Shown here piece after piece: positions 9,864 to 55,282 of a stretch of DNA of 64,000 bases (its first letter is position 1; each line of letters begins with the position of its first letter). The position numbers and the translations under genes were made by a program. Location: IMG/VR virus record IMGVR_UViG_3300028027_000046, one strand, 5' to 3'. The notes under the pieces were generated by a model. It did not search any database, was not told the DNA's origin, and worked only from the letters and a program-made list of their open reading frames with translations. Origin of the DNA: an uncultured virus (IMG/VR IMGVR_UViG_3300028027_000046). Its lineage: Duplodnaviria > Heunggongvirae > Uroviricota > Caudoviricetes.

Positions 9864-10706
9864 ATGAAAGACATCCGCACACTATATCAACAATACTGCG
9901 AGTCATATTCCATTCCGTTTCAGCACGACAACAAGGTAAATCCATACGACGATACTACCTTGTTTTGTCCTGCGGGTATGCAGCAATTCAAGCACAAATT
10001 TAAAAACCCGGACAACACTACAATCGCAAACATACAATCGTGTATTCGTTTGCAGGACATTGAGGAAATAGGCGACGGTACACACTTGCTACACTTCAAT
10101 ATGCTCGGTTTATTTTCATTTGGCGAGCTAACCATGCAACAAGCGGTTCACTTTTGGATGCGATTCATCGAATCCACACTCGAAATCAAAGTAGACACAA
10201 TCACCATACACCCAGACAAACTAAACGAGTGGAAACACATGTACGAAGCGTACCCTCACCTAAACATCACCACAGACGAGGAATGTATCTGGTCGGATGG
10301 TGAAATGGGTGGTTACTGTACTGAATTCTATGTGAACGGAGTGGAAATAGGCAACATAGTGAACACGTTAGATCAATTCATAGACGTTGGATTCGGCATG
10401 GAACGCCTTGAGCTCATGGCGAATGGCGAACAAGTAAAGTCCGCGCTGGATACGCTGCGAGAAACAATCGAACGCATCATCGACTCGGGCTACAAACCTG
10501 GACCACAAAAGCAAGGATATATTTTGCGTAAATTGCTACGCGAACTGTATGTACAGGGTGGTACTATGGAACACCCATACTTCACACAAGAAGTGGAGCG
10601 TCAAAACAAAGCAAAGGTACGTTACGAACGGTTAGTAGTTAAACATCCAGACATGCCGAAGGAATGGTGGTTTGATACTCACGGAGTAGATTTAGATCTC
10701 CTGTAA
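9864..10706 (+). CDS. alaS: truncated alanyl-tRNA synthetase (catalytic domain plus part of the helical domain)
   Basis: DDTTLFCPAGMQQFK, QSCIR, HLLHFNMLGLFSFG, VEIGNIV, IDVGFGMERL and GYILRKLLR match class II AlaRS motifs; no editing or C-Ala domain. Confidence 0.88.
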   Translation: MKDIRTLYQQYCESYSIPFQHDNKVNPYDDTTLFCPAGMQQFKHKFKNPDNTTIANIQSCIRLQDIEEIGDGTHLLHFNMLGLFSFGELTMQQAVHFWMRFIESTLEIKVDTITIHPDKLNEWKHMYEAYPHLNITTDEECIWSDGEMGGYCTEFYVNGVEIGNIVNTLDQFIDVGFGMERLELMANGEQVKSALDTLRETIERIIDSGYKPGPQKQGYILRKLLRELYVQGGTMEHPYFTQEVERQNKAKVRYERLVVKHPDMPKEWWFDTHGVDLDLL

Positions 10707-14316: not shown

Positions 14317-14979
14317 ATGAAAAATATTGTATTTGCACTACTCTTACTCGCCACACCCATATACAGTCAGGACACGCTAGAGCAAATATCGTCCAATTCC
14401 ATTGGCGGTAGTGCTGTAAGCAACACAAAACAAATCAATTTCACTGCCAACGGCGACAATTCACTCAAATACAAAACATATACACTATCCAACCTCACTA
14501 ACTATTCCGTATCGTGGGTAGACAAGAAAGTAGCTGAGGAAATATCCAGCAAAACCAACCTCACCCACGGTAAATGGTTCTGCCTGTACATGTTCACCCA
14601 TTCACTCACACGTAAAATCACCTACGACAATTCTATTGGTGTAGGCTATGTGCACTGGTGGGAAAACACTTCGGTTTCGTATGGCGTAATATATGCACAA
14701 ACCATTTATGTAACCCAACCCACACTAAATGTATTTAGGCACTCGGTGCGAGCCAAAGCAACATACAAATGGTTGGCATTGGAATACTATATTCAACCCA
14801 ACGTCACAAACATACACGATATCATAATCACTGGATATACCAAAGTAAATTTATTTCGTGGTAAAAAAATTGGGCTTTCCGTAGTAGATGTCGTAAATTT
14901 CAGGAGTACAAGCACCACCAAATTAATACACACAATTAGTTTAACCGTAAACATTAATATTAAATCCAAAGTTATATGA
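14317..14979 (+). CDS. secreted, possibly outer-membrane beta-strand protein
   Basis: Signal peptide MKNIVFALLLLATPIYSQ; alternating amphipathic strands. Confidence 0.5.
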   Translation: MKNIVFALLLLATPIYSQDTLEQISSNSIGGSAVSNTKQINFTANGDNSLKYKTYTLSNLTNYSVSWVDKKVAEEISSKTNLTHGKWFCLYMFTHSLTRKITYDNSIGVGYVHWWENTSVSYGVIYAQTIYVTQPTLNVFRHSVRAKATYKWLALEYYIQPNVTNIHDIIITGYTKVNLFRGKKIGLSVVDVVNFRSTSTTKLIHTISLTVNINIKSKVI

Positions 14980-15770
14980 AAAAAATTATTGTAAGTCATG
15001 AAACCCCATTTTGCCTGTTGGGTAATAGTTTAAAATTTAACGACTATCAGTACTGCCTCCCCCACCTAATGGAGCAAAACGAGCAATATCGTGAGCACTT
15101 CATGCAATGTAAAGCAGACAGCATCGAAATATACCTCGACAATTCATTGCACGAACTTGGCGCCAGTGTATCCGATGAATTACTCACTAAATGGGTGAAC
15201 ATACTAGAGCCATCTACATTCTTCGTCCCAGACGCGTGGGAAGACTACGATACCTCCGTTGTAAACGCGAGACGATGGTCAAACATAGCAGTACCCGAGA
15301 CAACCACTAAAACAGCAGTAATCCAAGCAAAATCGCTACATGAGGCTATGTTGTGTGTACAAGCATACCGTGATTTAGGCTACAAGAAATTCGCATTTTC
15401 GTACGGTGCATCATACTACAACGAGTTATGCCCTGCATTAAATCCAGACTTTGGTAAAGCAATAGGCCGTTTCATTGCCATTTCCCGCATGTACGAAGAA
15501 GGTATATTGTTGGGTAGTGACCGTGTACATTTACTTGGTACGGCATGGCCAGCTGAATTCTCGCTATACAAAGACATGCCATTCATCGAGTCACTGGATA
15601 CATCAAACCCAATTATGGCTGCGTTAGATGGTACTGTATACGATGAATCCGGTGTATATCGTAAACCAAAAGCAAACATGAACAACTACCAGGACATACC
15701 ACTTGAGGACATCAATATTCATTTAGTTGAATACAATGTAATGAAATTTCGTTCAATTAATGGACTTTAA
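14976..15770 (+). CDS. DpdA/TGT-like 7-deazaguanine transglycosylase
   Basis: YLDNS, VPD, AVIQ, VHLLG and SLDTSNP follow the TGT barrel motif order; no Zn site; next to queC/D/E and folE. Confidence 0.7.
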   Translation: MKKIIVSHETPFCLLGNSLKFNDYQYCLPHLMEQNEQYREHFMQCKADSIEIYLDNSLHELGASVSDELLTKWVNILEPSTFFVPDAWEDYDTSVVNARRWSNIAVPETTTKTAVIQAKSLHEAMLCVQAYRDLGYKKFAFSYGASYYNELCPALNPDFGKAIGRFIAISRMYEEGILLGSDRVHLLGTAWPAEFSLYKDMPFIESLDTSNPIMAALDGTVYDESGVYRKPKANMNNYQDIPLEDINIHLVEYNVMKFRSINGL

Positions 15771-15771
15771 T

Positions 15772-15800
15772 TTGGATACCTCAAATCCAATTCGTATATT
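15772..15800 (+). promoter_or_regulatory. promoter class 1, TTG(G/T)-N18-GTATATT (example; about 20 copies in the window)
   Basis: Exact 18-nt spacer counted at 6461, 7568, 12328, 15772, 17562, 21898, 23956, 27528, 32177, 35409, 42690, 48667, 54054, 56969, 58450 and 59139. Confidence 0.85.
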
Positions 15801-15827
15801 CAATCATATTTAAAAACAATAAAAGTT

Positions 15828-16085
15828 ATGGAACCAAGAGAAACATTTTTGTCATTGTATGACTATTTAGGAAAAGCAGCTGGACCTGAATTAGGAAAAA
15901 AAGTAGCGGCAGCGGCTTACAAAAGCAAAATTTACCCAAAACAACGTCCTGTATCTAACCCAAACTATACCGGTATGGTATTTTTGTACCCGAAGGACTT
16001 CTTGGACGCATTTTTTGCTGAACCAGACCCAATGGACGATGCTACGTTAGGTGATTTACAAGACTATTATTCATTAAACAAATAG
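15828..16085 (+). CDS. hypothetical protein
   Basis: 85 aa with its own promoter motif. Confidence 0.65.
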   Translation: MEPRETFLSLYDYLGKAAGPELGKKVAAAAYKSKIYPKQRPVSNPNYTGMVFLYPKDFLDAFFAEPDPMDDATLGDLQDYYSLNK

Positions 16086-16089
16086 AGCC

Positions 16090-16371
16090 ATGCCAGAATT
16101 AACTAAATACAGCCAATTTGTAGACGTTGATGTTGAAATTGACGTAGATGAATTTTTAGACGCATGCTCCACACACGAAATAAACGAGGTAGTGGAGTGG
16201 TTGCAAAACGGTGACTATATTAAAATGTCACATTTAATTAATGACTCTCGCATGTCCATGGGTGATCTCGAATACATCAAAATCATAAACAAACTAACCG
16301 ATCCTATGGTTCGCTTCCGTTTAAGCGAGGAAGAAATGTGTATATTGCAACAAATATCAGATAAATTATGA
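16090..16371 (+). CDS. hypothetical protein
   Basis: 93-aa acidic ORF coupled to queC. Confidence 0.65.
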   Translation: MPELTKYSQFVDVDVEIDVDEFLDACSTHEINEVVEWLQNGDYIKMSHLINDSRMSMGDLEYIKIINKLTDPMVRFRLSEEEMCILQQISDKL

Positions 16372-17075
16372 AAAAAGGAAAAGCAATTGTAGTATTTTCG
16401 GGTGGACAAGATTCTACTACATGCCTATACTGGGCATTAAACAGATACGAAACCGTAGAAGCCATTACATTCCAGTATGGGCAAAAACATTCAATCGAGG
16501 TTGAACAATCCATTAAAATATTGGAAAAAACCGGAGTAAAACAAGTTGTGGTTAATTTAGACCAATCGTTGGGTTACTTAGCAGAAAGTGCACTTACATC
16601 CAATGGTGATGTATCCCAAATCAATAAGTATGGTTTACCATCCTCGTTTGTACCGGGTAGAAACGGTATATTTCTGTACAATGCATATGTTTATGCGTTA
16701 AAAACTAATACGGATGCGTTAGTGACGGGAGTTTGTCAAACTGACTATAGCGGTTACCCTGATTGCAGACGTGATTTCGTTGATTCATTGCTTGAAACAA
16801 TGAACTTGGGTGTATTTGGAGAAAAAGCATCTGGTTTATCCATCGAAACACCATTAATGTACTTAGACAAAGCAGATACATTCAAATTAGCATTAGACGA
16901 GGGATGTTTAGACGACGTAATTTCATTGTCCCACACATGCTACAATGGAGAAAGAACATACCAACACGAGTGGGGATTCAGCTCAGAGCAAGGCACACCA
17001 GAAGACCCATTCTGCCCAGCATGTGAATTGAGAGCAAAAGGGTGGGACGAGTTCAAAACTAGATACAATTACTAA
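16368..17075 (+). CDS. queC: 7-cyano-7-deazaguanine synthase
   Basis: SGGQDS PP-loop, YGQKH, VPGRN, YPDCR, TCY...CPAC. Confidence 0.95.
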   Translation: MKKGKAIVVFSGGQDSTTCLYWALNRYETVEAITFQYGQKHSIEVEQSIKILEKTGVKQVVVNLDQSLGYLAESALTSNGDVSQINKYGLPSSFVPGRNGIFLYNAYVYALKTNTDALVTGVCQTDYSGYPDCRRDFVDSLLETMNLGVFGEKASGLSIETPLMYLDKADTFKLALDEGCLDDVISLSHTCYNGERTYQHEWGFSSEQGTPEDPFCPACELRAKGWDEFKTRYNY

Positions 17076-17086
17076 ACATACAATAC

Positions 17087-17410
17087 ATGATTGTCCGAAG
17101 TAACACAATGTTGTTTATTTTTGGTTTATTTTTAGGAAAAATGGGTAAACATATAACTGCACTAGCATTTTACCCATTTATTTTTGTATCAAAAGATGCA
17201 ACCGTAACACCTCAACTAATCAACCATGAACGTATACATTTGAGACAGCAAATAGAAATGTTAATTTTGCCATTTTATATTTGGTATTTAGTTGAATACT
17301 ACACCAAAGGCTACTGGAGCATATCATTTGAGCGAGAAGCATATAGGAACCAGGACAACCCACACTATTTAACCAATCGACCAATATTTAACTTCACTAA
17401 ACATATATAA
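17087..17410 (+). CDS. small HExxH membrane protein
   Basis: NHERIHLRQQ...SFEREAY. Confidence 0.7.
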   Translation: MIVRSNTMLFIFGLFLGKMGKHITALAFYPFIFVSKDATVTPQLINHERIHLRQQIEMLILPFYIWYLVEYYTKGYWSISFEREAYRNQDNPHYLTNRPIFNFTKHI

Positions 17411-17641
17411 ACAATGAAACACCCAGATCCAAAATTACACCAACTAGTTAGCTTCGTGAAATCCGGAGTACGCATCATCGGATACACATTTATCCCATTC
17501 TCACTAACATATGCAACAGCGGCATTAATAGTATCTGAATTAATAGGAATTGCAGAGGAACTTGTCTAGCCAAACATCCATTCGTATATTCCAGCATAAA
17601 GCAAGTAAAACGAAATGGTTTTACTTTAAAATAAAGGTTGT

Positions 17642-18310
17642 ATGAAAGTATGGTTTTGTGTTGTAGCTATATTAGCTACCATGGGTTGCAAGAAAGTAGA
17701 AGTCGACCCTTACCCATTCGTAAATGGGAAACAGTCCAAATTAACAATGAAATATGAACAGGACATCAACGGGTACTATTTAGTACCCATTGATTCCAAT
17801 TCAAATTCAAACCGTGTGGACTTATACGTAGAGGCATCCGAATTAATAGACCACTACAAATACAATGGTGTGTCGGTAATTGAGGCAGAATTTGACTGTA
17901 GCTCATACTGGGTACTAGGTATACTTGGAAGCGATTTAGGTATCGTTTTACCACTATACCAACCATTTGGGAGCTACCATTTCCCATCCGGTAAACCAAT
18001 TGCCGTAGCAGACACCATGATGCCACTGGACCAATTCAAAAACTCCATGGTTCCCATGGTCACCAAATACGGAATATACTTGAAAGAATACTTTGGTGGC
18101 GACATGTACAAACCAGCAGACGAATATAAACCTGAACCAGGCATGCTTTGGAGCAAGAAAATTGCTGGACCTATACCAGGATATTTTGTTGGCGATACTA
18201 TTTCCGTATATTCCAAAATATTTTGGGATTGTAGTAACTGGTCAGTTACTCACCCAAAACAAACATTTCAAACCAATTCAATTAAAATTATATTTAAATC
18301 TAAACAATAG
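17642..18310 (+). CDS. lipoprotein
   Basis: Lipobox ATMGC followed by KKVE. Confidence 0.7.
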   Translation: MKVWFCVVAILATMGCKKVEVDPYPFVNGKQSKLTMKYEQDINGYYLVPIDSNSNSNRVDLYVEASELIDHYKYNGVSVIEAEFDCSSYWVLGILGSDLGIVLPLYQPFGSYHFPSGKPIAVADTMMPLDQFKNSMVPMVTKYGIYLKEYFGGDMYKPADEYKPEPGMLWSKKIAGPIPGYFVGDTISVYSKIFWDCSNWSVTHPKQTFQTNSIKIIFKSKQ

Positions 18311-18313
18311 CAT

Positions 18314-18733
18314 ATGGCACAATTTACATCTCCACAATTAACATCTTGTTTTAGACAATGGCGTGCTGAAGGTACACACTGTAGGTTTACCCACGCATAT
18401 AAAGTATGGTTTGAGTTGGATTTTGACCAAGACATCAATGGTATATTTAATTCATATCCTGAATTAAAATTGTACCTTAATGAATGGTTTCTATCTAATT
18501 TTAACTACAAAACATTTGTATCTGAAAATGACCCTGAACTAGACACATTTAAACTACTCGATCAAAACAAAGCCATTTCACTAGTAACAATACCAGAAGT
18601 GGGGTGTGAGCGTTTTTCGGAATATGTTTTGGATAACGTCAATGTTATACTAAGTCAATTTGATTTAGATATTAAATGTGTTCGGGTAGAGACATGGGAA
18701 CATGAAAAAAACAGTGGAGTAGCTTACATATAA
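18314..18733 (+). CDS. queD: 6-carboxytetrahydropterin synthase homologue, copy A
   Basis: CFRQWRAEGTHCRFTHAY, ENDP, VGCERF and WEHEKNS; lacks the WVxDFG and DH motifs. Confidence 0.85.
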   Translation: MAQFTSPQLTSCFRQWRAEGTHCRFTHAYKVWFELDFDQDINGIFNSYPELKLYLNEWFLSNFNYKTFVSENDPELDTFKLLDQNKAISLVTIPEVGCERFSEYVLDNVNVILSQFDLDIKCVRVETWEHEKNSGVAYI

Positions 18734-18783
18734 ATTGTACTTACATGCATGGTGGTAATATGTATAATAAAACATAATCCACC

Positions 18784-19695
18784 ATGACAAGACAAACATT
18801 GAATAAGCAACTCATATTAGACTTATATAATCAAAACCCCACTAAAGGAAAATACTGGGTGGCAGATCAGTTAGGTTTAAATAGGAGTTCCGTTAGCACG
18901 TTAATAAATAAATATTGTACTAATAATTTACCCCTTGACAAAGAATTAGAGAGTATGGTAAAAGAATTACTTCCCTTATTCCCATATACCGGTACTAAAA
19001 ATAAAATAAGCAAACATCTAGGAGTTTCTCATCACACCTTAGACCAATTACTCCATAAAACCCAGGATATATTAATAATTGATCATTTTAATACTCCCAA
19101 ATGTAGTTCATCCAAACTAACAGATACTGATATTCAGGATGTACTGGATGGGAGTAAATTGGGTATAGGTAATGACCAAATGGGTTTAATTAAAGGAGTT
19201 GATGGTATTAGTATAAGAAATATACGAAAAAAATTGCTCACTAAGGAAGAATATGCTCAGTACCATTCAATAGAACGATTTTATTCAGGTGACTACAATG
19301 CTTACTATAATGACCGTGGGGATAAATTTTTATCAACGTGGGAAGAAAAATTAGCTGACCATATGTTTGAAATTGGTGTTAAATATTTTTCAAATGTTCG
19401 TCTATCTTACGATGGTAAAAACTATTCACCCGATTTTTATTTACCCAAAACAAGAACATTCATCGAGGTATTTGGTATGTCCAATATTAACACATACAAA
19501 TCACGAATGAATGAAAAAATTGAATTTTACAATAGCAACAACATTAAGTGTTTATTCCTATTTGAAGATAGTTTTATGTTAAACAGAAAACCTGTAGACT
19601 CATATAAAGTTAATTTAGATAATTTCCTAACCGAAATAGAAGGTCGTATATTTAATCAACATATAAAGAAAATCCATATAAACAATAAAAAATGA
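18784..19695 (+). CDS. free-standing PD-(D/E)XK endonuclease with N-terminal HTH repeats (putative homing endonuclease)
   Basis: STWEEK...YSPDFYLP...FIEVFG; AT-rich; own ATATGTATA motif at 18758; lies between the queD copies. Confidence 0.75.
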   Translation: MTRQTLNKQLILDLYNQNPTKGKYWVADQLGLNRSSVSTLINKYCTNNLPLDKELESMVKELLPLFPYTGTKNKISKHLGVSHHTLDQLLHKTQDILIIDHFNTPKCSSSKLTDTDIQDVLDGSKLGIGNDQMGLIKGVDGISIRNIRKKLLTKEEYAQYHSIERFYSGDYNAYYNDRGDKFLSTWEEKLADHMFEIGVKYFSNVRLSYDGKNYSPDFYLPKTRTFIEVFGMSNINTYKSRMNEKIEFYNSNNIKCLFLFEDSFMLNRKPVDSYKVNLDNFLTEIEGRIFNQHIKKIHINNKK

Positions 19696-20126
19696 AAAAA
19701 TTCCAGTCATCAAAATTAATGGACGGTTATTCTACATGTTATAGAAACCATTCCGCAACAGACCAAACACAACAACTGCATGGATGTGATATTAAATTCA
19801 GAATGCACTTTGAAGGTGAATTGGACCATAGAAACTGGGTTGCTGATTTTGGTTGGATGAAGCGTTCCAAGCAAACTATATCCGGAATGAGTGTAAAGGA
19901 TTATTTTTCGTATTTGTTTGACCATACATGTCTTATTCAAAATGACGATCCACTTAGAGAAACATTTGAGGACATGAACCGTAAAGGCACCATTCAACTC
20001 CGACTAATGGATTCAACCACTAAGGAGGGAATCGAGAAATATTTATTCAATACAATCCAGACGCTTATTACCGACGAAACCGAAGGAAGAGTAAATCTTG
20101 TAAAATTAGAAGTAACTAATTACTAA
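19692..20126 (+). CDS. queD: 6-carboxytetrahydropterin synthase homologue, copy B
   Basis: KFQSSK, LHG, GELDHRNWVADFG, LFDHT, NDDP; lacks the HC cysteine and the terminal EHEKNS. Confidence 0.85.
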   Translation: MKKFQSSKLMDGYSTCYRNHSATDQTQQLHGCDIKFRMHFEGELDHRNWVADFGWMKRSKQTISGMSVKDYFSYLFDHTCLIQNDDPLRETFEDMNRKGTIQLRLMDSTTKEGIEKYLFNTIQTLITDETEGRVNLVKLEVTNY

Positions 20127-20130
20127 ACCC

Positions 20131-20244
20131 ATGGATACCCCAACAATTAGACAATATGGTAACGTTCAGCTAGCTTGGACTTATACCACTTCGTGGGATC
20201 CCGAGTTCCCTCAACCATTAATCGTAAAATACACAATCAAATGA
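20131..20244 (+). CDS. 37-aa small protein
   Basis: Fills the gap exactly and has an ATGA overlap with the thioredoxin start. Confidence 0.45.
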   Translation: MDTPTIRQYGNVQLAWTYTTSWDPEFPQPLIVKYTIK

Positions 20245-20483
20245 AACAATTAATTTACTTTTACGGTACATTTTGCAACCCATGCAAATCATTTAGACCC
20301 ACTGTTGACCGTGTCAGCCAATCATACCCAGTGAAATTCGTTGATGTCGACCAAGAACCACAACTCGTAGCAGAATACGGCATTCGTGCCGTACCTACAG
20401 TAGTTGTAGTGGAAAATGGCCGTGCCATTGATAAAAAATCCGGTGTATTAACCGAAGGGCAATTAGTGAGCATGCTTGCTTAA
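20241..20483 (+). CDS. thioredoxin
   Basis: FCNPCK, VDVD, IRAVPT. Confidence 0.9.
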   Translation: MKQLIYFYGTFCNPCKSFRPTVDRVSQSYPVKFVDVDQEPQLVAEYGIRAVPTVVVVENGRAIDKKSGVLTEGQLVSMLA

Positions 20484-20534
20484 AAAATTTGGCTCCGCAA
20501 GGAGCCATTTGTATCTTTAACCAAAAATAGTTAT

Positions 20535-21371
20535 ATGAAATTAAATTTAGTACACGGGGGTATATTCCCCATCAAAGGCAAACTAAACGAGGACTCCACT
20601 GGATTTCAGTACAGTGGTACATTCCAAGGTGAAGGTAAATTAACTGGAACAGCATGTCTGTTCATTCGTACATCTGCATGTAATTTGAGATGTGCATGGG
20701 TTGGGCTAGACGGAAACGGCTCACTATGCGATACACCATATTCCAGCCACAACCCGGAAAAAAATCAAATGGACGTTGAAGATATCGTTAAAATCGTAGT
20801 AGAAAATACACGCGACCAAAACATTAACCATGTTGTTATCTCAGGTGGTGAACCTACCATGCAAACAGACGCATTGGTTGAGTTAGTACAAAAATTAAAC
20901 GCTTTATTTTACCATATCACCATCGAAACAAACGCTACTATATATGATGAGCGTATTTCAAAATATTCTAATTTGATGTCCATGTCACCTAAGTTAGCAT
21001 CATCCACACCATGGGTAGCCAATTTGAAAAATTCTGGCGTAGAATACAAGCAAAAATGGGCTGAACGCCATGAACGTGATCGTATCAATATTGAGGCAAT
21101 GCAACAATATATAAATGATAGACATCATCATGATTGCGACTTTCAATTGAAATTTGTTGTTGCTACTGAACAAGACATCGAGGAAATCGAAAGCATATTA
21201 TCCCAATTAGATGGATTTGGCCCATCAGATATATGTTTAATGCCCGAGGGAGTAGATGTAAACACATTAAACTCAAGAACTGGTTGGGTAGCTGAACAAG
21301 CACTTAAACGTGGGTGGAGATTTTGCCCTCGCTTACACATCATGATGTTTGGAAAAAACCGCTATGTTTGA
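20535..21371 (+). CDS. queE: 7-carboxy-7-deazaguanine synthase (radical SAM)
   Basis: FQGEG, FIR, CNLRC-x11-CDT, SGGEP, IETN, SPKL, RLH. Confidence 0.93.
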   Translation: MKLNLVHGGIFPIKGKLNEDSTGFQYSGTFQGEGKLTGTACLFIRTSACNLRCAWVGLDGNGSLCDTPYSSHNPEKNQMDVEDIVKIVVENTRDQNINHVVISGGEPTMQTDALVELVQKLNALFYHITIETNATIYDERISKYSNLMSMSPKLASSTPWVANLKNSGVEYKQKWAERHERDRINIEAMQQYINDRHHHDCDFQLKFVVATEQDIEEIESILSQLDGFGPSDICLMPEGVDVNTLNSRTGWVAEQALKRGWRFCPRLHIMMFGKNRYV

Positions 21372-21392
21372 TTTAACTAAATACACACCACC

Positions 21393-21896
21393 ATGTCCAT
21401 ACTAATAACCAAAACCGAAATCAAAAACAATGCCCGTAGGCTAGGCAATACCATCACCAAAAAACACCAACCAGACCTAGGTGATGTGGTAATGATTTGC
21501 CTGTTAAACGGCGGATTCATGTTTTTCGCTGATCTAGTACGCAACATCGATTTAAACATTAAATGTGATTTCATGCGAGTAAAGTCATACACCGGACAAG
21601 AACAATCCGAGTTGCAAATAATCAAGGACATAGAGTTAGACTTAACTGGAAAACATGTGTATATAGTTGATGACTTCTTCGATTCAGGCAATACTATGAA
21701 CGCAGTTCATGAGCGCTTAAAATCGCATAATCCTGCGTCATTAACGGCGGTTACTTTACTCAAACGATACCGTTGTAAACGACCAACCTATCCATTTATG
21801 TATGGTGTTGAAGTTAAGAAAGAATGGGTATATGGTTACGGTATGGACAATGAAGCTGGCTATTGTCGTAATTTAGACGCAATTTATAAAATTTAA
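21393..21896 (+). CDS. hpt: hypoxanthine-guanine phosphoribosyltransferase
   Basis: LNGGFMFFADL, VKSY, IVDDFFDSGNT PRPP loop, VYGYGMD...RNL. Confidence 0.9.
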   Translation: MSILITKTEIKNNARRLGNTITKKHQPDLGDVVMICLLNGGFMFFADLVRNIDLNIKCDFMRVKSYTGQEQSELQIIKDIELDLTGKHVYIVDDFFDSGNTMNAVHERLKSHNPASLTAVTLLKRYRCKRPTYPFMYGVEVKKEWVYGYGMDNEAGYCRNLDAIYKI

Positions 21897-21945
21897 CTTG
21901 GATACCACAACCCAGGTTTGTATATTCACATAAAAACAAAAACAT

Positions 21946-22659
21946 ATGAGTAGAAAAGAAAAGAAAGTAAAAGTAGAGGAACTCGAAATTGCAACAGCAG
22001 GACACGCAAACGGTATATCTACCTATTTAGCTGAACTTATCGCTAAAGGTGAGCACCGTTCATTAAACGATTTAGAAAAACTGCAAATCATTGACAAAGC
22101 AACATTCCACTACGGTGAATTCTTAACCGCACTTGGCTGTAACTGGCAAGACGACCCGAATTCAGACAATACACCTCGTCGTGTAGCAAAAGCATACGTA
22201 AATGACCTGTGGAAAGGCCGCTACGAATTAATGTCAGACGTTACTTCATTCCCATCCGACGGATATAATGGTATCGTGTTAGAGAAAAACATACCATTAA
22301 CTAGCCAATGTTCGCACCACCACCAAACAATTGAGGGTAGAGTACACATAGCATATATCCCCGGGAAAGACGGTAGTGTAGTTGGTTTATCCAAACTTAA
22401 CCGCATCGTAGAGCATTTTGGTCGTCGTGGAGCAATCCAAGAACAGTTAACTGTAGCCATCCACAACGCAATATCCAAGATTTGTTCAGGCAATATTGGT
22501 GTAATGGTCATGATTGACTCGACACATAATTGTGTAAAATGTAGAGGTGTGAAGCACTCCGGTGCATCCATGGTTACATCTGAAGTATCTGGTGTGTTCG
22601 CTAACCATACAAAAACAGCAAAACAGGAAGTAATCGAAATGATCAAATTAAAATTCTAA
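21946..22659 (+). CDS. folE: GTP cyclohydrolase I
   Basis: TPRRVAK, SQCSHH, GLSKLNR, IQEQLT, HNCVKCRG. Confidence 0.95.
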   Translation: MSRKEKKVKVEELEIATAGHANGISTYLAELIAKGEHRSLNDLEKLQIIDKATFHYGEFLTALGCNWQDDPNSDNTPRRVAKAYVNDLWKGRYELMSDVTSFPSDGYNGIVLEKNIPLTSQCSHHHQTIEGRVHIAYIPGKDGSVVGLSKLNRIVEHFGRRGAIQEQLTVAIHNAISKICSGNIGVMVMIDSTHNCVKCRGVKHSGASMVTSEVSGVFANHTKTAKQEVIEMIKLKF

Positions 22660-28250: not shown

Positions 28251-29897
28251 ATGAGCAAACAAATCAAACTAGGTGCCGAGGCACGTAAAAAATTAGCAAA
28301 CGGAATCGATACATTAGCAGACGCAGTAGTATCCAGTTTAGGTCCGCAAGGTAGAAACACAGTATACTTCCATGACGGAGTAGCTGTATCCACAAAAGAC
28401 GGTGTATCCATCGCGAAACACATTTCGGAATTGGAAGACCCAATTGAGAACTTAGGTGCGCAAATGATCAAGCAAGCCGCAATCAAAACAGCAGACAATG
28501 CAGGTGACGGTACAACTACATCAACATTATTAGCTCGTGAAATCGTTAAGCAAGGTTTGCAACGTTTAAATGAAGGCGGAAACGCAGTTGAAATCAAACG
28601 TGGAATCGATGCAGCAGTTAAGCAAGTAATCGAATCACTTAAACATTCATCCGAAAAAATCACATCTGAAGACCAGCTAGAGCAAATCGCATCTATCTCT
28701 GCAAACAATGACCCAGAAACTGGTAAATTAATTGCACGCGCAATGGAGAAAGTAGGCCGTGAAGGTGTAGTACACATTGAGGAATCTCGCACTGGCGAAA
28801 CATACTTAGAGGTAGTTGAAGGTATGCAATTTGACCGTGGCTACAAGTCACCATATTTCGTTACCAACAACAACAATATGTCAGCTGTATTAACTGACGC
28901 ATTGGTATTAATCGCTGACCATAGATTCACACAAGTGAAAGAATTGCTACCTATCTTAGACGGTGTAGCTCGTACTGGAAAATCATTACTTATCATTGCG
29001 GAAGACATCGACGGTGAAGCATTAGCTACATTAATTGTAAACAAAATGCGTGGTACGTTAAAAGTAGTTGCTGTTAAAGCACCTGACTTCGGCGACCGTA
29101 GAAAGTTAATACTAGAAGACATCGCTACATTAACTGGTGGTACTGTATTCGACAAAGACAAAGGTATGAAACTGGACAAATTCCAGGACGAATGGTTCGG
29201 AAACGCACGTACAATCACTGTAACTAAAGAACAAACCACAATCGTTGACGGTCAAGGTTCGGAAGACGCAATCACTAAACGCGTTGAAGAATTGGAAGCA
29301 CAAATCGATAAATCCACAACACCATTTGAAACTGAAAAGTTGCAAGAACGTTTGGCTAAATTTGTAGGTGGTGTTGCTTTAGTACACGTAGGTGGTAATA
29401 CTGAAACGGAAATGAAGGAAAAGAAAGACCGTGTTGACGATGCATTGCATGCAACTAAATGTGCTTTGGAAGACGGTATTGTTCCTGGTGGTGGTACAGC
29501 ATTATTGTACGCTAGAGAAGCAATCACTGAACGCGGTACAGACGGATCTGATTTTAATTTCGGTAAACGTTTAGTATATAAAGTTTGCGGTAAACCATTT
29601 GAGCAAATCTTAATCAACGCAGGATATGATGCTGCTGAAATTTACCCAATCAACATGGAAATTGGTAAAGCTGGTGAGGCTGGAACTAAACCATGGTTTG
29701 GATTCAACATCAAAACTGAGGAAATCGTAAACATGAAGGAAGCAGGTATACTTGACCCAACCAAAGTAACATGCAGCGCCCTTAAAAATGCATCCAGCAT
29801 TGCCGGTACAATTTTATTAACCGAGTGTGTTATCGTAGACAAGCCAGAAGACAAGAAAGAAGACGGTGGCTACGATCCATCTCAAATGATGATGTAA
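28251..29897 (+). CDS. groEL: chaperonin GroEL
   Basis: LGPQGRN, TKDGVS, GDGTTT, EGMQFDRGY, KLQERLAK, GIVPGGG. Confidence 0.98.
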   Translation: MSKQIKLGAEARKKLANGIDTLADAVVSSLGPQGRNTVYFHDGVAVSTKDGVSIAKHISELEDPIENLGAQMIKQAAIKTADNAGDGTTTSTLLAREIVKQGLQRLNEGGNAVEIKRGIDAAVKQVIESLKHSSEKITSEDQLEQIASISANNDPETGKLIARAMEKVGREGVVHIEESRTGETYLEVVEGMQFDRGYKSPYFVTNNNNMSAVLTDALVLIADHRFTQVKELLPILDGVARTGKSLLIIAEDIDGEALATLIVNKMRGTLKVVAVKAPDFGDRRKLILEDIATLTGGTVFDKDKGMKLDKFQDEWFGNARTITVTKEQTTIVDGQGSEDAITKRVEELEAQIDKSTTPFETEKLQERLAKFVGGVALVHVGGNTETEMKEKKDRVDDALHATKCALEDGIVPGGGTALLYAREAITERGTDGSDFNFGKRLVYKVCGKPFEQILINAGYDAAEIYPINMEIGKAGEAGTKPWFGFNIKTEEIVNMKEAGILDPTKVTCSALKNASSIAGTILLTECVIVDKPEDKKEDGGYDPSQMMM

Positions 29898-29954
29898 AGA
29901 ATTATTTTACCCGGAGTGCGACTTACGTGTCTCCGGGTAATATGTATAACCGAC

Positions 29955-30893
29955 ATGGATTATACAAAAATATATAACAGCATTATTGAGCGTGCTCAAA
30001 ATCGCGATCTAGAAGGATATAGTGAGAAACATCATATTACACCTAAATGTATTGGTGGTCAAGATGTAAAAGAAAATATAGTTGAATTGACGGCTCGTGA
30101 GCATTTTTTATGTCATCGTTTACTATGTGAGATATATCCAAACCAAGAAAAATTGTGGTATGCATTGTGGCTGATGGCTATAGGTAAGAAAAAATGGAAC
30201 CATAGAGATCCATATAACTTTACTAGTAGAGAATATGAGCGTATAAAACTAGAATTTATCCAAAGAAAAACAGGCAGCTTTACAATCAGTGAACAACATA
30301 AAAACAAAATATCCGAACATAACTCAGTTCCCGTGTATCAATATACTATAAAAGGTGAATTTGTTAAACTTTGGAACAGTTGTGTTGAAGCTGAAATGCA
30401 TATTAATAATAAAAATCATTGGACTGAATGTAATGATAATATAGGATCTTGTGCTAGAGGTGATCAAAAAACATCATATAAACATGTTTGGAGTTATACT
30501 GAACTTCCCCCAGATTCACCATTATTTAATCCTTTATGGAAGGGGTGTGAGATAATTCAAATAGACCATAATGGGGATGTTATTAATGAATTCCCTACAA
30601 AAAAAGATGCTTTGAAAGATCTCAATATATCTAATCATATGTTTTATAAACTATTATCCAAACCATTTGATGAACCCATTTCCCCTAAATTTAGAAAAAT
30701 ACACCAATTGGATTTAGACGGAAATATACTGTCAACATATGATTCTTTATCCCAAACTAAAAAAATGGGATTTCTCCCCGATTCTATTTCTAATGTTCTT
30801 CGTGGAGTTAGCCATACCTCGGGTGGTTATAAGTGGGAATATGCTGATGAAAATATAAATATAAAATATAGATTACAATGGAAAAACAAATAA
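29955..30893 (+). CDS. HNH homing endonuclease with NUMOD1-like repeats
   Basis: EKHHITPKCIGG...NIVELTAREHFLCH; repeated VYQYTIKG / IHQLDLDG...GYKW modules. Confidence 0.88.
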   Translation: MDYTKIYNSIIERAQNRDLEGYSEKHHITPKCIGGQDVKENIVELTAREHFLCHRLLCEIYPNQEKLWYALWLMAIGKKKWNHRDPYNFTSREYERIKLEFIQRKTGSFTISEQHKNKISEHNSVPVYQYTIKGEFVKLWNSCVEAEMHINNKNHWTECNDNIGSCARGDQKTSYKHVWSYTELPPDSPLFNPLWKGCEIIQIDHNGDVINEFPTKKDALKDLNISNHMFYKLLSKPFDEPISPKFRKIHQLDLDGNILSTYDSLSQTKKMGFLPDSISNVLRGVSHTSGGYKWEYADENINIKYRLQWKNK

Positions 30894-36392: not shown

Positions 36393-36659
36393 ATGAAATT
36401 ACTAAGACCCGAAGTAGAAAAAGACATAGTCCCTTTAACTAGTTGCTCACTATTTGATATGGCTGACAACATAGCCAAAATGTGCTATAACATAACAGAA
36501 GAAGAATATTTGAAAATACTAAACGAAGCCACTGAGGAAGAAATAGCTCATTTTGCCGTTGTATTTGATGATTCTCCTGAAAGTTTTACATTTACCGCAT
36601 ATAAACAGGGGCTAAGAGTGAGAAACAAATATGTGGAATATTTTAACCATAAGTTATGA
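36393..36659 (+). CDS. hypothetical protein, paralogue of 57860..58108
   Basis: Both start MK(L/I)LRPEV and contain VRNKY. Confidence 0.7.
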   Translation: MKLLRPEVEKDIVPLTSCSLFDMADNIAKMCYNITEEEYLKILNEATEEEIAHFAVVFDDSPESFTFTAYKQGLRVRNKYVEYFNHKL

Positions 36660-37318
36660 ATATAGTATTTTTTACCGGAGCAGGTATATCAGAAGAAAGC
36701 GGTATACCTACATTCAGAACAGGAGAAGACAGCATCTGGAACCGATACAACCCAGACATAGTATGTAATATTAGAGCGTGGCCCCACCACAAAGAAAAAA
36801 TCCTGTCATTCTTCAATGAAGTCAGATCTTGGGTGGAAAAATGTGAACCTAACCAAGCCCACATAGACATAGCTCAACTTGAAAATACACATACTGTACA
36901 TGTAATCACAACAAACATAGACGAGTTGCATGAGAATGCTGGATCCACTAATGTAATCCATGTACATGGAAATATATTTGAATGTTGCGATGTTAACTAT
37001 CACCATATTGAACCATGTCACACTGATATAAACATAGGAGATGTTCACCCTAAATCAAACTCCCAACTTAGACACAATGTAGTCATGTTTGGAGAGATGC
37101 CTTACCATTTCACCAAAGCAATGCGCATTATATCCCAAGCCGATATACTAGTTGTTATCGGCACATCATTAAGTGTATACCCAGCGGCGGGATTAGTGGA
37201 ATCATTCAAAGGACAAATATACTATATTGACCCAGAAGCTCGTTCTATAAACGATAAAACCATTGCCATTAATAAGAAAGCAACGGATGGCGTAAAAGAA
37301 TTTATTTCATTAATTTAA
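36656..37318 (+). CDS. Sir2/CobB-family NAD-dependent deacylase
   Basis: TGAGISEESGIPTFR, TTNIDELHE, HVHG, VMFGE, GTSLSVYPAA. Confidence 0.95.
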   Translation: MNIVFFTGAGISEESGIPTFRTGEDSIWNRYNPDIVCNIRAWPHHKEKILSFFNEVRSWVEKCEPNQAHIDIAQLENTHTVHVITTNIDELHENAGSTNVIHVHGNIFECCDVNYHHIEPCHTDINIGDVHPKSNSQLRHNVVMFGEMPYHFTKAMRIISQADILVVIGTSLSVYPAAGLVESFKGQIYYIDPEARSINDKTIAINKKATDGVKEFISLI

Positions 37319-37944: not shown

Positions 37945-38868
37945 ATGTTTACTGATAAAACATTAATATTCATTGATAAGGCTAACACTAAACATAACCA
38001 TGTTTATGACTATTCCTTAGTCAACTATATTAATGCTAAGACTTATATAGACATAATATGTCCACAAAACCATACTTTTAAACAAACACCCAATGATCAT
38101 CTTAATGGTCATGGTTGTAAAGTATGTTCTGGGTGGGGTCAAATTAAATTTAATCCTGATGAGTTCATAAATCGAGCAAAGGAAGTACATGGTGATCTAT
38201 ATGATTATTCAAAGTCTGAATATATAGAGCATAACACTCCCCTTATAATAATATGTCAAGAACATGGTGAATTTGAACAATCCCCAAAATCCCACTTAAT
38301 CAAAAAATACGGGTGTCCTAAATGTGGGATATCTGTAAGGGTAAATAAGTTAAGGTGGTCTTTAGACAAATTCATCATTGAATCCAATAAAGTACATAGG
38401 GGAAAATATGACTATTCAAAATTTAAATATATTACATTTGGGAGTAAATCTGAAATACTCTGTAAAACTCATGGTTTATTCCTCCAAACACCAAAAGACC
38501 ATATCATCCAAAAACAAGGATGCCCCAAATGTGGATTATCTAAAGGCGAAAGCATCATCCAGTATTATCTTATAGACAACAATATCCAATATTCCACTCA
38601 AAAAACATTCCCCGATTGTATTAATCCTAAATCAAATAGAAAATTAAAATTTGATTTTTTCATCCCCCATCTTAATATGTGTATTGAATTCGATGGTAAA
38701 CAACACTTCGAAGAGGCACCACGATTCAAAAGTGAACTATCCCATATACAATATAGAGATGAAATTAAAAATAAATATTGTCTTGATAACCAAATCAGTC
38801 TTATTCGAATAAAATATTTGGATATTAAAAAAATAAGTAGTATATTAGACAATATATTTAAACAATAA
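37945..38868 (+). CDS. putative homing endonuclease: three zinc-binding repeats plus a Vsr/PD-(D/E)XK-like domain
   Basis: Three YDYS...IC..HG.F.Q.P..H...GCPKC repeats; SKGE...FDFF...IEFDGKQH. Confidence 0.85.
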   Translation: MFTDKTLIFIDKANTKHNHVYDYSLVNYINAKTYIDIICPQNHTFKQTPNDHLNGHGCKVCSGWGQIKFNPDEFINRAKEVHGDLYDYSKSEYIEHNTPLIIICQEHGEFEQSPKSHLIKKYGCPKCGISVRVNKLRWSLDKFIIESNKVHRGKYDYSKFKYITFGSKSEILCKTHGLFLQTPKDHIIQKQGCPKCGLSKGESIIQYYLIDNNIQYSTQKTFPDCINPKSNRKLKFDFFIPHLNMCIEFDGKQHFEEAPRFKSELSHIQYRDEIKNKYCLDNQISLIRIKYLDIKKISSILDNIFKQ

Positions 38869-54099: not shown

Positions 54100-54435
54100 A
54101 TGGCAAATAATTTAGACAAACAATACACAACATTACTGCAAGACATCTTGGATAACGGTCATCAAAAAGGTGACCGTACAGGAACGGGAACTATATCAGT
54201 ATTTGGTAGACAGATCAGACATAAGATGTCAGAAGGATTTCCACTTCTTACCACAAAGAAAATGTATATGAAAGGAGTTATTGCAGAATTATTATGGTTC
54301 TTACGTGGTGATACAAACATTAAATTCCTTGTTGATAATAATTGTCATATTTGGGTAGGAGATTCCTTTTCTAACTACATGAAGGAATATGAAAAATATA
54401 AACAATCTCAAGAAAATGTTGAGAAGGAATGTTAA
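54100..54435 (+). CDS. thyA: thymidylate synthase, N-terminal piece
   Basis: [26 protein letters not shown]; ends at a TAA. Confidence 0.93.
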
Positions 54436-54472
54436 ATTTGGAATTTTCATATATTTATAATAAAATAATATT

Positions 54473-55279
54473 ATGAGTGTAGGGATTTACAAAATTACAA
54501 CCCCAAGTGGTAAAATTTATATTGGGCAATCAACTAATCTTGAAAAAAGAGAAGATGATTATATAAAACTTAGATGTGGTAAACAACCTAAACTGTATAA
54601 TTCTCTTAAAAAACACGGATGGGAAAAACATAAATTTGAAATAGTAGAAGAGTGCATTGTAGAACAATTAAATGAAAGAGAAATATATTGGGGATTATAC
54701 TATGATGTTTTAGGAGAAAATGGTCTAAATTTAAGATTAGGAGATGCTAATGGGTTATGTAGTCAAGAAACTAAAGATAAAATAGGTTTATCTAACTCGG
54801 GACCTAAACCTAACGGGTTTAATCAAAAATTAAGTAAACCCGTTTTACAATTTGATAAACAAGGTATCTTGATAGCCGAATATACTTCATATAACAATGC
54901 AGTTAAAATTACAGGTTTACGTTTAGCTGAAGTTTTAAGAGGAGCTGCTAAAACCGCAGGTGGATTTATTTTTAAATACAAAGATGACTGGGATGGAAAT
55001 CCACCAATGATAAAACCCCATGGTAAAATAGGTAAACCGTCGTCTCTTAAGGGTAGGGTTAGCCCCACTAAAGGTAAATCAATAAATAAAAAGCCCAAAA
55101 CAGAAGAATTTAAAAATAAGTTAAGCAAACCCATATTACAATTAGATTTAGAAGGTAATATTATATATGAATTTAAATCACAAACTGAAGTAAAACAATT
55201 ATTAAATATAGACCCTCAGAATGTTTTAAGAGGAAAAACTAAAACAGCAGGTGGTTATAAATGGAAATATAAAATATAA
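54473..55279 (+). CDS. GIY-YIG homing endonuclease
   Basis: VGIYKITTPSGKIYIGQS; two KP(V/I)LQ...AGG(F/Y) NUMOD1-like repeats; KGRVSPTKGK shared with 644..1444. Confidence 0.92.
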   Translation: MSVGIYKITTPSGKIYIGQSTNLEKREDDYIKLRCGKQPKLYNSLKKHGWEKHKFEIVEECIVEQLNEREIYWGLYYDVLGENGLNLRLGDANGLCSQETKDKIGLSNSGPKPNGFNQKLSKPVLQFDKQGILIAEYTSYNNAVKITGLRLAEVLRGAAKTAGGFIFKYKDDWDGNPPMIKPHGKIGKPSSLKGRVSPTKGKSINKKPKTEEFKNKLSKPILQLDLEGNIIYEFKSQTEVKQLLNIDPQNVLRGKTKTAGGYKWKYKI

Positions 55280-55282
55280 GTT

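Follow-up and report, generated by a model that had tools for sequence, protein, structure and literature searches.

A freshwater phage was found to carry two full-length QueD-like open reading frames, here designated copies A and B, which flank an endonuclease ORF on the same strand (Table 1) and between which the catalytic residues of QueD are, as judged from sequence, divided over two T-fold modules. Together, A and B probably constitute an obligate heteromeric CPH4 synthase possessing one live and one dead composite active site per A:B contact. The locus is located in a stretch of 64,000 nucleotides of an uncultured virus (IMG/VR record IMGVR_UViG_3300028027_000046), which is referred to below as the window, and no intact QueD was found within these 64 kb.

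Table 1 Features of the QueD locus and its surroundings in the window.
Feature	Coordinates	Strand	Size	Evidence or remark
DpdA-like DNA transglycosylase	14976..15770	+		matches the annotated DpdA of Flavobacterium phage immuto (33% identity, E 8e-46)
QueC	16368..17075	+		Pfam QueC, E 7.1e-61
QueD copy A	18314..18733	+	139 aa	
Hairpin	18748..18786	+		3' arm contains the endonuclease start codon (18784-18786); TATAATAAAA element in loop
Homing-endonuclease-like ORF	18784..19695	+	303 aa	
QueD copy B	19692..20126	+	144 aa	
Thioredoxin	20175..20483	+		Pfam Thioredoxin, E 6.9e-17
QueE-like radical SAM enzyme	20535..21371	+		Pfam Radical_SAM, E 1.7e-10; position is that of annotated QueE of related phages
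Phosphoribosyltransferase	21393..21896	+		Pfam Pribosyltran, E 1.2e-20
GTP cyclohydrolase I, FolE	21946..22659	+		Pfam GTP_cyclohydroI, E 7.7e-43

Results

Copies A and B are two whole, divergent QueD folds

Copies A and B, which share only 16% identity, both match the Pfam PTPS profile (PF01242, cut-off 22.4 bits), A marginally with 23.4 bits over profile positions 19-115 of 121 and B with 33.2 bits over positions 11-108, and both match the QueD-like phrog_2389 almost end to end (E 1.6e-23 for A and 3.5e-23 for B). The extent of these matches indicates that A and B represent two whole folds and not the N- and C-terminal halves of a single one, which bears out what a sequence-only reading of this DNA had claimed. 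The AlphaFold2 models of A (pLDDT 87.2, pTM 0.81) and B (pLDDT 85.1, pTM 0.79) both have 3jyg and QueD2 (7v0f) as their top Foldseek matches, and all matches at E ≤0.001 (10 for A, 4 for B) are QueD, QueD2 or PTPS structures or the uncharacterized QueD-like protein WS1659. A search of the PDB with A or B as a single sequence returned nothing useful; a profile of the phage family was needed for this purpose, the best match of which among solved structures is QueD2 (7v0f, E 6.5e-9).

The NCBIfam equivalog model for QueD (TIGR03367, cut-off 89.25 bits) was not reached, since A gave no match and B scored 24.6 bits, and the single-copy relative P0027 also remained below this cut-off with 27.2 bits. 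Moreover, the pair of His residues in the HGH element of the canonical CxxxHGH motif is not kept in full, the corresponding sequence being HGY in the phage family, HAY in copy A and HGC in copy B. At the level of profile and motif, the phage QueD family as a whole is therefore divergent from canonical QueD.

The pair is conserved and under purifying selection

A B-type gene follows the A-type gene, on the same strand, in all six distinct contigs with downstream sequence (the window, L073, L154, L156, L157 and L008), a seventh A-type contig (L155) ending 50 nt past A. The other loci, 221 in a count that was not de-duplicated, that includes L155 and in which some contigs occur more than once, hold a single QueD-like ORF each, and GenBank phage records, in sets of 92 and 108, have one matching place each. 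Single-sequence scans with B and with the endonuclease returned almost only the window's own contig. The A-type genes form 20 full-length clusters of 47-94% identity and the B-type genes at least 13 clusters, and the trees of A and of B agree in separating a clade I, which includes the window, from a clade II.

Both A and B are under purifying selection, pN being far below pS in 36 of 36 pairwise comparisons, with dN/dS values of 0.13-0.19 for A within clades and of 0.08 for B between L156 and L157, values that are rough, since most pairs have saturated synonymous sites.

Active-site motifs are lost reciprocally

Motifs were compared by aligning A and B first with three and later with 36 single-copy phage QueDs. 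Copy A retains FRQWRAEGTHC (containing H22 and C23), H27, Y29, VGCERFSE (residues 96-103) and VETWEHEKNS (residues 125-134), while two 5-residue deletions at the site of ELDxRNWVxDFG have removed the NWVxDFG strand, and FNYK is present in place of FDHT, such that N64-Y65 is found where Asp-His is expected. Copy B retains H30, ELDHRNWVADFG (residues 43-54) and LFDHT with D77-H78, is devoid of the Cys loop and the catalytic Cys, contains TTKEG instead of VGCER, and has a C-terminus which stops before EHxKNS (no Glu-His). Every motif that the sequence-only reading had listed as kept or lost, in A as well as in B, is so in the alignment to the single-copy QueDs.

The catalytic Cys, located four residues before the motif His (CxxxHG; C23 and H27 in A), is invariant in 19 of 19 A-types and absent from copy B and from all 15 B-types scored. 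Conversely, the Asp-His dyad (D77-H78 of B) is invariant in 12 of 12 B-types, and is also kept by the clade II A copies of L156 and L157. The C-terminal Glu of the family (column E144), which we take to be the pterin anchor, lines up with the HETD Glu of 7v0f; A retains it as E129, and B stops short of it.

Conserved columns were defined as those kept in at least 90% of the 36 single-copy relatives, which yielded 36 columns. In clade II, 12 of these are kept by both copies, 11 by A only, 13 by B only and 0 by neither, the corresponding numbers for clade I being 7, 11, 14 and 4. The number of losses shared by the two copies is below chance expectation in clade II (0, hypergeometric p 0.002) as well as in clade I (4, p 0.02), p-values that are overstated because conserved columns cluster into motifs. 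Losses in clade II are limited to the NWVxDFG strand in A and the Cys loop in B, to which clade I adds the loss of Asp-His in A and of GCE and the C-terminal Glu-His in B. The claimed reciprocal degeneration is thus real, conserved across relatives and progressive from clade II to clade I, and neither A nor B looks self-sufficient.

Natural A-B fusions and a predicted A:B complex

In the window the two modules are encoded by separate genes with a 303-codon ORF between them; elsewhere they are part of one polypeptide. Natural A-B fusions occur on five contigs, P0254 (306 aa) being present in one and P0377 (312 aa) in four contigs from three sources. The N-terminal module of the fusion scores 105.7 bits on the A profile vs 24.2 bits on the B profile, and its C-terminal module scores 95.5 bits on the B profile with no match by the A profile at E ≤10. 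A scan of IMG/VR with P0254 returned single-copy genes only.

Modeling of the A:B complex yielded a score of 0.71 (best of three controls, 0.00), a mark that 116 of 157 solved complexes attained, as did 2 of 215 mismatched pairs; this score, obtained by modeling the A+B pair alone, may reflect memory of solved homomeric QueD, QueD2 and PTPS structures and does not separate a heteromer from homomers. Three runs agreed in 100% of contacts, with a partner pLDDT of 90. The tightest predicted contact is that of A-H27 with B-H78, residues 22-30 of A being positioned against residues 77-80 of B, and the NWVxDFG strand is located outside the predicted head-to-head interface. Both the natural fusion and the modeled complex with its expected His-His contact favor the heteromeric QueD that had been postulated from the sequence.

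A proposed heteromeric QueD and its alternatives

It is proposed that A and B assemble into a single hetero-oligomeric T-fold QueD which would act in the phage 7-deazaguanine DNA-modification pathway. To this enzyme A would contribute the loop with the catalytic Cys, along with the motif His, GCE and the Glu-His that anchors the pterin, and B would contribute the Asp-His dyad in trans over the ring-ring contact, as well as the NWVxDFG strand kept by B alone. The trans action of the dyad, already assumed in the sequence-only reading, agrees with solved QueD and QueD2, where the dyad acts across rings (PMC9894224); the sole precedent for a trans role of the NWVxDFG strand is the within-ring contact of H45' in QueD2 (PMC9894224). 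Considering that active sites are built across protomers and that the residues are split between A and B, each head-to-head A:B contact would encompass one complete site, formed by the A loop and the B dyad, and one dead site, formed by the B loop and the N-Y of A. In its 'dead' site copy B still has C16, R18 and H30, which the heteromer model does not explain. We infer that A binds B in this stoichiometry and that neither copy is active alone, and a Cys-less QueD is indeed described as inactive in a previous report (PMC10516641). The clade II A copies of L156 and L157, which retain Cys, Asp-His, GCE and Glu-His, might be active alone. Degeneration would have been stepwise, one loss per copy as in clade II being followed by the further losses in both copies seen in clade I; the two genes are fused in one lineage, and the pair would represent the two-gene stage of a T-fold bimodularization.

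Two other readings of the pair were weighed against this heteromer. The notion that one copy is a decaying remnant of a duplication draws on the absence, from each copy, of residues held essential in canonical QueD; it is close to refuted, as both ORFs are intact in six of six pair contigs, dozens of columns are invariant in A and in B over 47-94% identity, both folds are predicted with confidence, and both copies persist as modules of a fusion protein. Neutral, pseudogene-like evolution of either copy, which the sequence-only reading had set against its own proposal, was not seen, pN being well below pS throughout. Separate jobs for the two copies are less improbable, though still unlikely: a homomer of A would be a CPH4 synthase by means of substitute residues, and B, a T-fold protein without the Cys, would serve a new or a non-catalytic function, e.g. 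the binding or transformation of another 7-deazaguanine intermediate, comparable to the proposal for DpdL. A Cys-less QueD paralog with proposed new chemistry has indeed been described for Cellulophaga phage phiST (PMC10516641), the A copies of L156 and L157 contain the full set of residues just mentioned, and B is well conserved by itself (dN/dS 0.08). However, the clade I A copy is without the dyad His and B is without the pterin-anchoring Glu, and therefore a full site would be formed by neither homomer in clade I; in addition, the losses in A and B avoid each other, and the two are fused into one polypeptide in another lineage. An assignment of B as DpdL was rejected, since neither A nor B exhibits profile likeness to DpdL (hhalign probability <1%) and B is devoid of the LxxxHRHxF motif of phiST gp040. 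Furthermore, the window, L073, L008 and L157 all have QueC beside the pair, whereas DpdL phages are described as being without QueC (PMC10516641). The heteromer thus remains the preferred explanation.

The endonuclease gene is a mobile and replaceable insert

The ORF between A and B, of which the TGA overlaps the ATG of copy B, specifies a protein with HTH repeats at its N-terminus and a nuclease-like domain at its C-terminus, and has a GC content of 29.9% vs 36% for the window. It matches phrog_9019 (E 2.2e-9) and phrog_945 (E 2e-4) over residues 170-260; its Pfam matches are weak HTH matches only, no Pfam nuclease family and, by sequence, no solved structure in the PDB was found for the nuclease domain, and Atlas feature matches point to viral HTH and DUF559 clusters, which serve as leads only. 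The family comprises 58 clusters, and tblastn retrieved no relatives in GenBank phages. In T4, intron and seg endonucleases have their start codon sequestered by a hairpin whose loop carries a promoter-like element. A comparable hairpin pairing with the start codon is predicted in all four loci with the current endonuclease (z-scores -3.3 to -4.2) and may have a regulatory meaning. The window also contains other homing endonuclease genes, one of which splits thyA.

This endonuclease occupies the A|B junction in four of the six pair loci (the window, L073, L154 and L156). In L008 it is absent, and A and B overlap by ATGA; in L157 the same slot, with homologous flanks, holds an unrelated homing endonuclease (phrog_314, E 3e-17). 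Endonuclease identity is 59-62% between the pair clades and 61-69% within clade I, while that of A falls from ~64% to 47-51%. The junction without insert, the replacement and the lack of a clade split in endonuclease identities together indicate that the insert is mobile and replaceable. The observations are best explained by a putative free-standing homing endonuclease that came to occupy the A|B junction secondarily. The sequence-only reading had envisaged a duplication around an invading endonuclease, which was thereby locked in place; neither part is supported as written, the gene being absent from one pair locus and exchanged in another, with identities that do not follow the clades.

Among IMG/VR contigs, the endonuclease family abuts a QueD gene in all four that carry a member, being positioned between A and B in two; in L237 it immediately follows a canonical CxxxHGH QueD, and in L238 it immediately precedes a single-copy QueD of the phage family. 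The possibility that the QueD of L238 had been cut short at its 5' end by the endonuclease was discarded, as its initial 27 codons can be read in a different frame, where they end in a stop just past the Cys codon.

Origin of the second copy

In the tree A and B are not sisters, as B is placed deep among the single-copy genes and A branches near the base, and A + B as one clade received an AU p of 0.018, for a group named after the tree was seen. The stem of A is very long (1.42 changes per column), and its basal placement as well as the AU result may therefore represent long-branch attraction. The C-terminal EHxKNS of A is similar to that of the basal single copies, and in clade II the B copy has EHERNSAS in common with the single copies nearest to it. 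This pattern would be accommodated by an amended origin, in which an endonuclease targeting the QueD 5' flank imported a foreign QueD beside the resident one, and afterwards disappeared from L008 and gave way to another endonuclease in L157; the xenolog pair would then have become an obligate heteromer and, in one lineage, a fused two-module enzyme. Such a scenario, in which the homing event that brought the second QueD would make the endonuclease ancestral to the pair, is considered doubtful. It is in keeping with the proximity of endonuclease and QueD in the four IMG/VR contigs, the presence of the endonuclease in four of six pair loci, the separate placement of A and B and their C-terminal motifs. 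Against it are the long stem of A and the post hoc naming of the tested group, the empty A|B junction with its ATGA overlap in L008, and the failure to identify a donor lineage; the absence of a clade I/II split in endonuclease identity fits later spread equally with ancestry. If true, mobile endonucleases would be a route to extra copies of oligomeric enzymes in phages, and these loci would display, in living lineages, all steps that lead from one gene to a partitioned fusion.

Discussion

The insert resembles the free-standing homing endonucleases of large phages in its presence or absence at one junction, its replacement by an unrelated gene, its low GC content, the occurrence of similar genes elsewhere in the window and a start codon located in a predicted hairpin that has a promoter-like element in its loop; it differs in that it is without a Pfam nuclease family, a PDB sequence match or a GenBank phage relative. 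An endonuclease gene between two paralogs need not be their cause.

DpdL of Cellulophaga phage phiST is likewise an additional QueD-like gene, located in a phage 7-deazaguanine cluster, from which the catalytic Cys has been lost (PMC10516641). However, there is no detectable sequence relation between DpdL and A or B, its motif differs, and it is present beside an intact QueD with a chemistry of its own proposed (PMC10516641), whereas the window is without one. Annotation pipelines label both genes of the current pair 'QueD' or miss A, and the preQ0 pathway of such phages could consequently be misscored as redundant or as broken.

Among solved structures, the closest relatives are QueD2 of Acinetobacter baumannii (7v0f) and WS1659 (3jyg), a branch of QueD in which the insertion that separates helices 1 and 2 is longer. 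The catalytic zinc of QueD2 is coordinated by motif histidines from one protomer together with the dyad His from a protomer in the opposite ring, the dyad His of the E. coli enzyme being written as His71'' (PMC9894224). QueD2 is the best solved match of the phage family profile and, with 3jyg, of both AlphaFold2 models; it has the T-fold and stacked rings, and its cross-ring His-His contact is reproduced in the predicted A:B complex. In contrast to the phage pair, where the residues are split over two chains, QueD2 forms a homo-octamer in which a single chain carries them all, and its motif is Cx4HGH, whereas the phage family has Cx3HGY, is without a C-terminal extension and scores below the NCBIfam QueD cut-off.

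Among the literature matches listed, no two-module, heteromeric or duplicated QueD was found. To our knowledge, the only examples of an active site shared out between duplicated T-fold modules are completed products in which the modules are fused, bimodular QueF being one of them. Following a duplication, one module of this (YqcD-type) enzyme contains Cys and Glu, and the second contains the QueF motif (PMC13740343). The likeness is that of a T-fold enzyme of the same pathway with catalytic residues partitioned after duplication, an architecture shared by the fused P0254 and P0377; the differences are that the family is QueD and that the modules in the window are encoded by two genes which a mobile endonuclease gene keeps apart. 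The phage loci display the stages side by side: one gene alone, two copies that have each suffered one loss, two copies with complete reciprocal loss, and a fusion. This coexistence makes both the order of events and a neutral origin of the dependence between the modules testable by simple complementation.

Two QueD-like genes with complementary motif loss

The phage genome is large and AT-rich (GC 36%), with 96 of the 104 long ORFs of the window located on one strand, and its nearest named relatives have Flavobacterium, Cellulophaga and Chryseobacterium as hosts. It carries a 7-deazaguanine DNA-modification cluster (see table), and ORFs A and B were the only QueD-like frames detected when the 64 kb were scanned with the family profile. 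A 29-nt intergenic stretch between the thioredoxin and QueE genes (20484-20512) is repeated with 97% identity on the same phage contig (G001:C1:28928-28956), possibly representing a shared regulatory element.

The PTPS/QueD profile is covered nearly whole by A and by B, a T-fold is confidently predicted for each (best solved matches being WS1659, 3jyg, and QueD2, 7v0f), and the two share 16% identity. Compared to single-copy relatives, A retains the FRQW..GTHC loop, the motif His and Tyr, VGCERF and the terminal EHEKNS, and shows deletions across ELDxRNWVxDFG and N-Y in place of the Asp-His dyad; B is its mirror image. Profile coverage, folds and alignment with single copies bear out the sequence-only reading of two whole QueD-like copies with complementary motif loss.

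Features of the window, with positions and matches
Feature	Position	Remarks
7-deazaguanine cluster	14976-22659	
DpdA-like transglycosylase	first in cluster	33% identity, E 8e-46, to annotated DpdA of Flavobacterium phage immuto
QueC	between DpdA-like gene and ORF A	
QueD-like ORF A	18314-18733	
303-codon ORF, endonuclease-like	18784-19695	between A and B
QueD-like ORF B	19692-20126	
Thioredoxin	next after ORF B	
QueE-like radical SAM enzyme	after thioredoxin	
Phosphoribosyltransferase	between QueE-like gene and FolE	
FolE	last in cluster	
GIY-YIG/NUMOD3 endonuclease ORF	584-1444	directly 5' of next ORF
Ribonucleotide reductase barrel, C-terminal part only	1448-2479	profile positions 374-523; N-terminus with sub-threshold match to end of intein splicing domain
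Class II alanyl-tRNA synthetase, N-terminal match	9864-10706	Pfam E 4.5e-20
Cpn60-type chaperonin, full-length	28251-29897	Pfam E 1.1e-64
Sir2-family protein	36656-37318	Pfam E 3.6e-36
Two endonuclease-like ORFs	29916-30893; 37945-38868	one with NUMOD1 match; the other with treble-clef zinc-finger (DUF4379, DUF723) and weak DUF2726 matches
Split thymidylate synthase	54100-56086	
ThyA, first part	54100-54435	Pfam ThyA positions 1-84
GIY-YIG/NUMOD-like endonuclease ORF	54473-55279	between ThyA parts
ThyA, second part	55283-56086	Pfam ThyA positions 75-264

Conservation of the A+B pair

In GenBank phages QueD occurs singly, with one matching place per record in sets of 92 and 108 records. When IMG/VR and metagenome contigs were scanned with A and with the alignment of its relatives (A-type), an A-type gene was found on the window's own contig and on six others, and a B-type gene lies 3' of it on the same strand in the window and in all five other contigs with downstream sequence, the sixth (L155) stopping 50 nt past A. 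The remaining 221 loci, which include L155 and are not distinct contigs as they repeat across scans, each hold one QueD-like ORF. In the protein collection, 20 full-length A-type clusters (47-94% identity to A) are separated by a sharp identity gap from ordinary single copies (at least 47% versus at most 42%), and at least 13 B-type clusters are present; equal "longest contig" values (e.g. 8118, 3135, 6099), to be taken as leads only, suggest more contigs common to A-, B- and endonuclease-type proteins. The A+B pair is a conserved system and not an accident of one genome.

In all 36 pairwise comparisons pN is far below pS, with dN/dS being 0.13-0.19 for A within clades (a rough value, synonymous sites being saturated elsewhere) and 0.08, likewise rough, for B between contigs L156 and L157, while 37 columns are invariant among A-types and 43 among B-types. 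On these grounds, decay of either copy as a pseudogene can in practice be dismissed.

Stepwise reciprocal loss

The A and B gene trees both recover the same two clades of pair loci, clade I (window, L073, L154) and clade II (L156, L157, L008). The NWVxDFG strand is the only loss in clade II A, the D-H still being read in L156 and L157, and the Cys loop and motif Tyr are the only losses in clade II B; clade I additionally lacks Asp-His and four N-terminal residues in A, and GCE and the C-terminal Glu-His in B. Among the 36 columns with at least 90% conservation across 36 single-copy sequences, 12 are retained by both clade II copies, 11 by A only, 13 by B only and none by neither, the corresponding clade I numbers being 7, 11, 14 and 4 (A84, D86, A116 and A150 absent from both). 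Random, independent loss would lead one to expect about 4 (clade II) and 7.5 (clade I) shared losses, against 0 and 4 observed; the p-values for avoidance of shared loss (0.002 and 0.02) are overstated because conserved columns cluster into motifs. Another family protein, P0058 (145 aa, from a 585-nt contig), has an intact Cys loop, dyad and GCE and a C-terminal end truncated as in B-types, and may be a recombinant or intermediate.

The endonuclease-like ORF between A and B

The 303-codon ORF gives weak HTH matches, and its residues 170-260 match PHROG families of the resolvase and endonuclease type. It has no hit to a nuclease family in Pfam, and sequence searches retrieved neither a solved structure nor a relative in GenBank phages. 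Its family comprises 58 clusters in the protein collection, and the window ORF has a GC content of 29.9%. This endonuclease occupies the A|B junction in the window, L073, L154 and L156, and the junction is empty in L008; in L157 it holds a 213-codon ORF matching phrog_314 "homing endonuclease" (E 3e-17), the N-terminus of which is read as GIY-YIG-like, with a sub-threshold NUMOD-like match as its sole Pfam hit. Homology between L156 and L157 runs to approximately 38 nt past the A stop and resumes just before B. Endonuclease identities are 59-69% throughout with no clade I/II split, whereas A drops to 47-51% between clades. Considering this junction occupancy and the identities without clade split, the insert is mobile and replaceable, and the A+B pair occurs without it; the proposal that the duplication arose around an invading endonuclease which became locked in place is, as written, unsupported by these same observations.

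At 4/4 loci with this endonuclease the start codon is paired in a predicted hairpin carrying TATAATAAAA in its loop (z -3.3 to -4.2), and the TATAATAAAA element is also present 5' of the L157 endonuclease. Mobile endonuclease genes are numerous in the window; in its thymidylate synthase, a homing endonuclease truly divides a single gene into two parts, whereas QueD is present in the same phage as two whole copies.

Origin of the second copy and alternative explanations

In the ML tree, A sequences group as one clade (100/100), whose stem is very long and attaches near the base of the Flavobacteriia-phage family, and B sequences as another (96/97), placed deep within the single copies; when A and B are forced into one group, the log-likelihood falls by 17.9 units (AU p 0.018, for a group named after the tree was seen), and long-branch attraction could generate the same picture. 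Endonuclease relatives adjoin QueD genes in both other IMG/VR contigs that contain one. In L237 (1892-3412) the relative (60% identity) is located directly 3' of a canonical CxxxHGH QueD (187 aa) and 5' of QueE, with no second QueD copy at this locus. In L238 (3369-3840) a single-copy family QueD lies directly downstream of the relative (47% identity) in two frames, its first 27 codons ending in a stop just past the Cys codon and the rest following in the other frame; the frame change may stem from misread bases in a T run, or the gene may truly be interrupted at the loop which B-types lost. Capture of a foreign QueD via a homing event is thus kept as a reading, albeit an unlikely one, no donor having been found.

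We give equally little credence to A and B having separate functions, a reading retained because the A copies of clade II might be active by themselves. A Cys-less QueD paralog of phages, DpdL, is a proposed decarboxylase according to passages of a 2023 paper devoted to 7-deazaguanines in phages (PMC10516641); DpdL was located in phiST via its motif, and shows no relationship to A or B.

A predicted heteromeric QueD

The central idea of the sequence-only reading, that A and B constitute an obligate heteromeric QueD, is probably correct and is the best-supported reading, the case being stronger than one drawn from a single window because of conservation, graded complementarity, a natural fusion and a structural rationale. 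The best solved relative of the family profile is Acinetobacter baumannii QueD2, for which passages of PMC9894224 give as catalytic zinc ligands both motif histidines from one protomer plus H68'' from the opposite-ring protomer, the EcQueD equivalent (His71'') being part of the first catalytic triad, and place H45' of the in-ring neighbour beside the Cys loop. By our own count on the family profile-QueD2 alignment, the His in the Asp-His dyad corresponds to H68. The segment aligning with ELDxRNW contains H45. Given such a trans-protomer zinc site and H45', the Cys loop, motif His and Glu of A could form one complete site with the dyad, and perhaps the strand, of B, and all motifs lost from A and B would gather in the pseudo-symmetric partner site.

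The A:B complex model scored 0.71 (best of three controls 0.00), a level that 116 of 157 solved complexes reached, as against 2 of 215 mismatched pairs, with 100% contact agreement between runs and a partner pLDDT of 90. The tightest predicted contact is A-H27/B-H78, A 22-30 facing B 77-80 and B 27-33 facing A 64-65. The pass may stem from homomeric structures already known to the predictor; A and B are thus modelled as fitting the family's head-to-head contact, the model being silent on any preference for each other.

A natural A-B fusion

Searching 1.84 billion representatives with a profile retrieved P0254, an A-B fusion protein of 306 aa with three matched stretches. Its N-module contains the Cys loop, GCERFSE and ETYEHEKNS and lacks NWVxDFG and the dyad, whereas its C-module contains NWVFDFG and LDHT and lacks the Cys loop, GCE and even the motif His. 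With the A profile the N-module obtains 105.7 bits and with the B profile 24.2; for the C-module the B profile gives 95.5 bits, and the A profile yields no hit up to E 10. A cluster mate, P0377 (312 aa), is found on 4 contigs from three sources. The module order of the fusion equals the gene order A-B, and an overlap of the two genes (ATGA) is already seen in L008. The divided two-module architecture of P0254 is shared with bimodular QueF, in which, as described in passages of PMC13740343, the Cys and Glu reside in one module and the QueF motif in the other.
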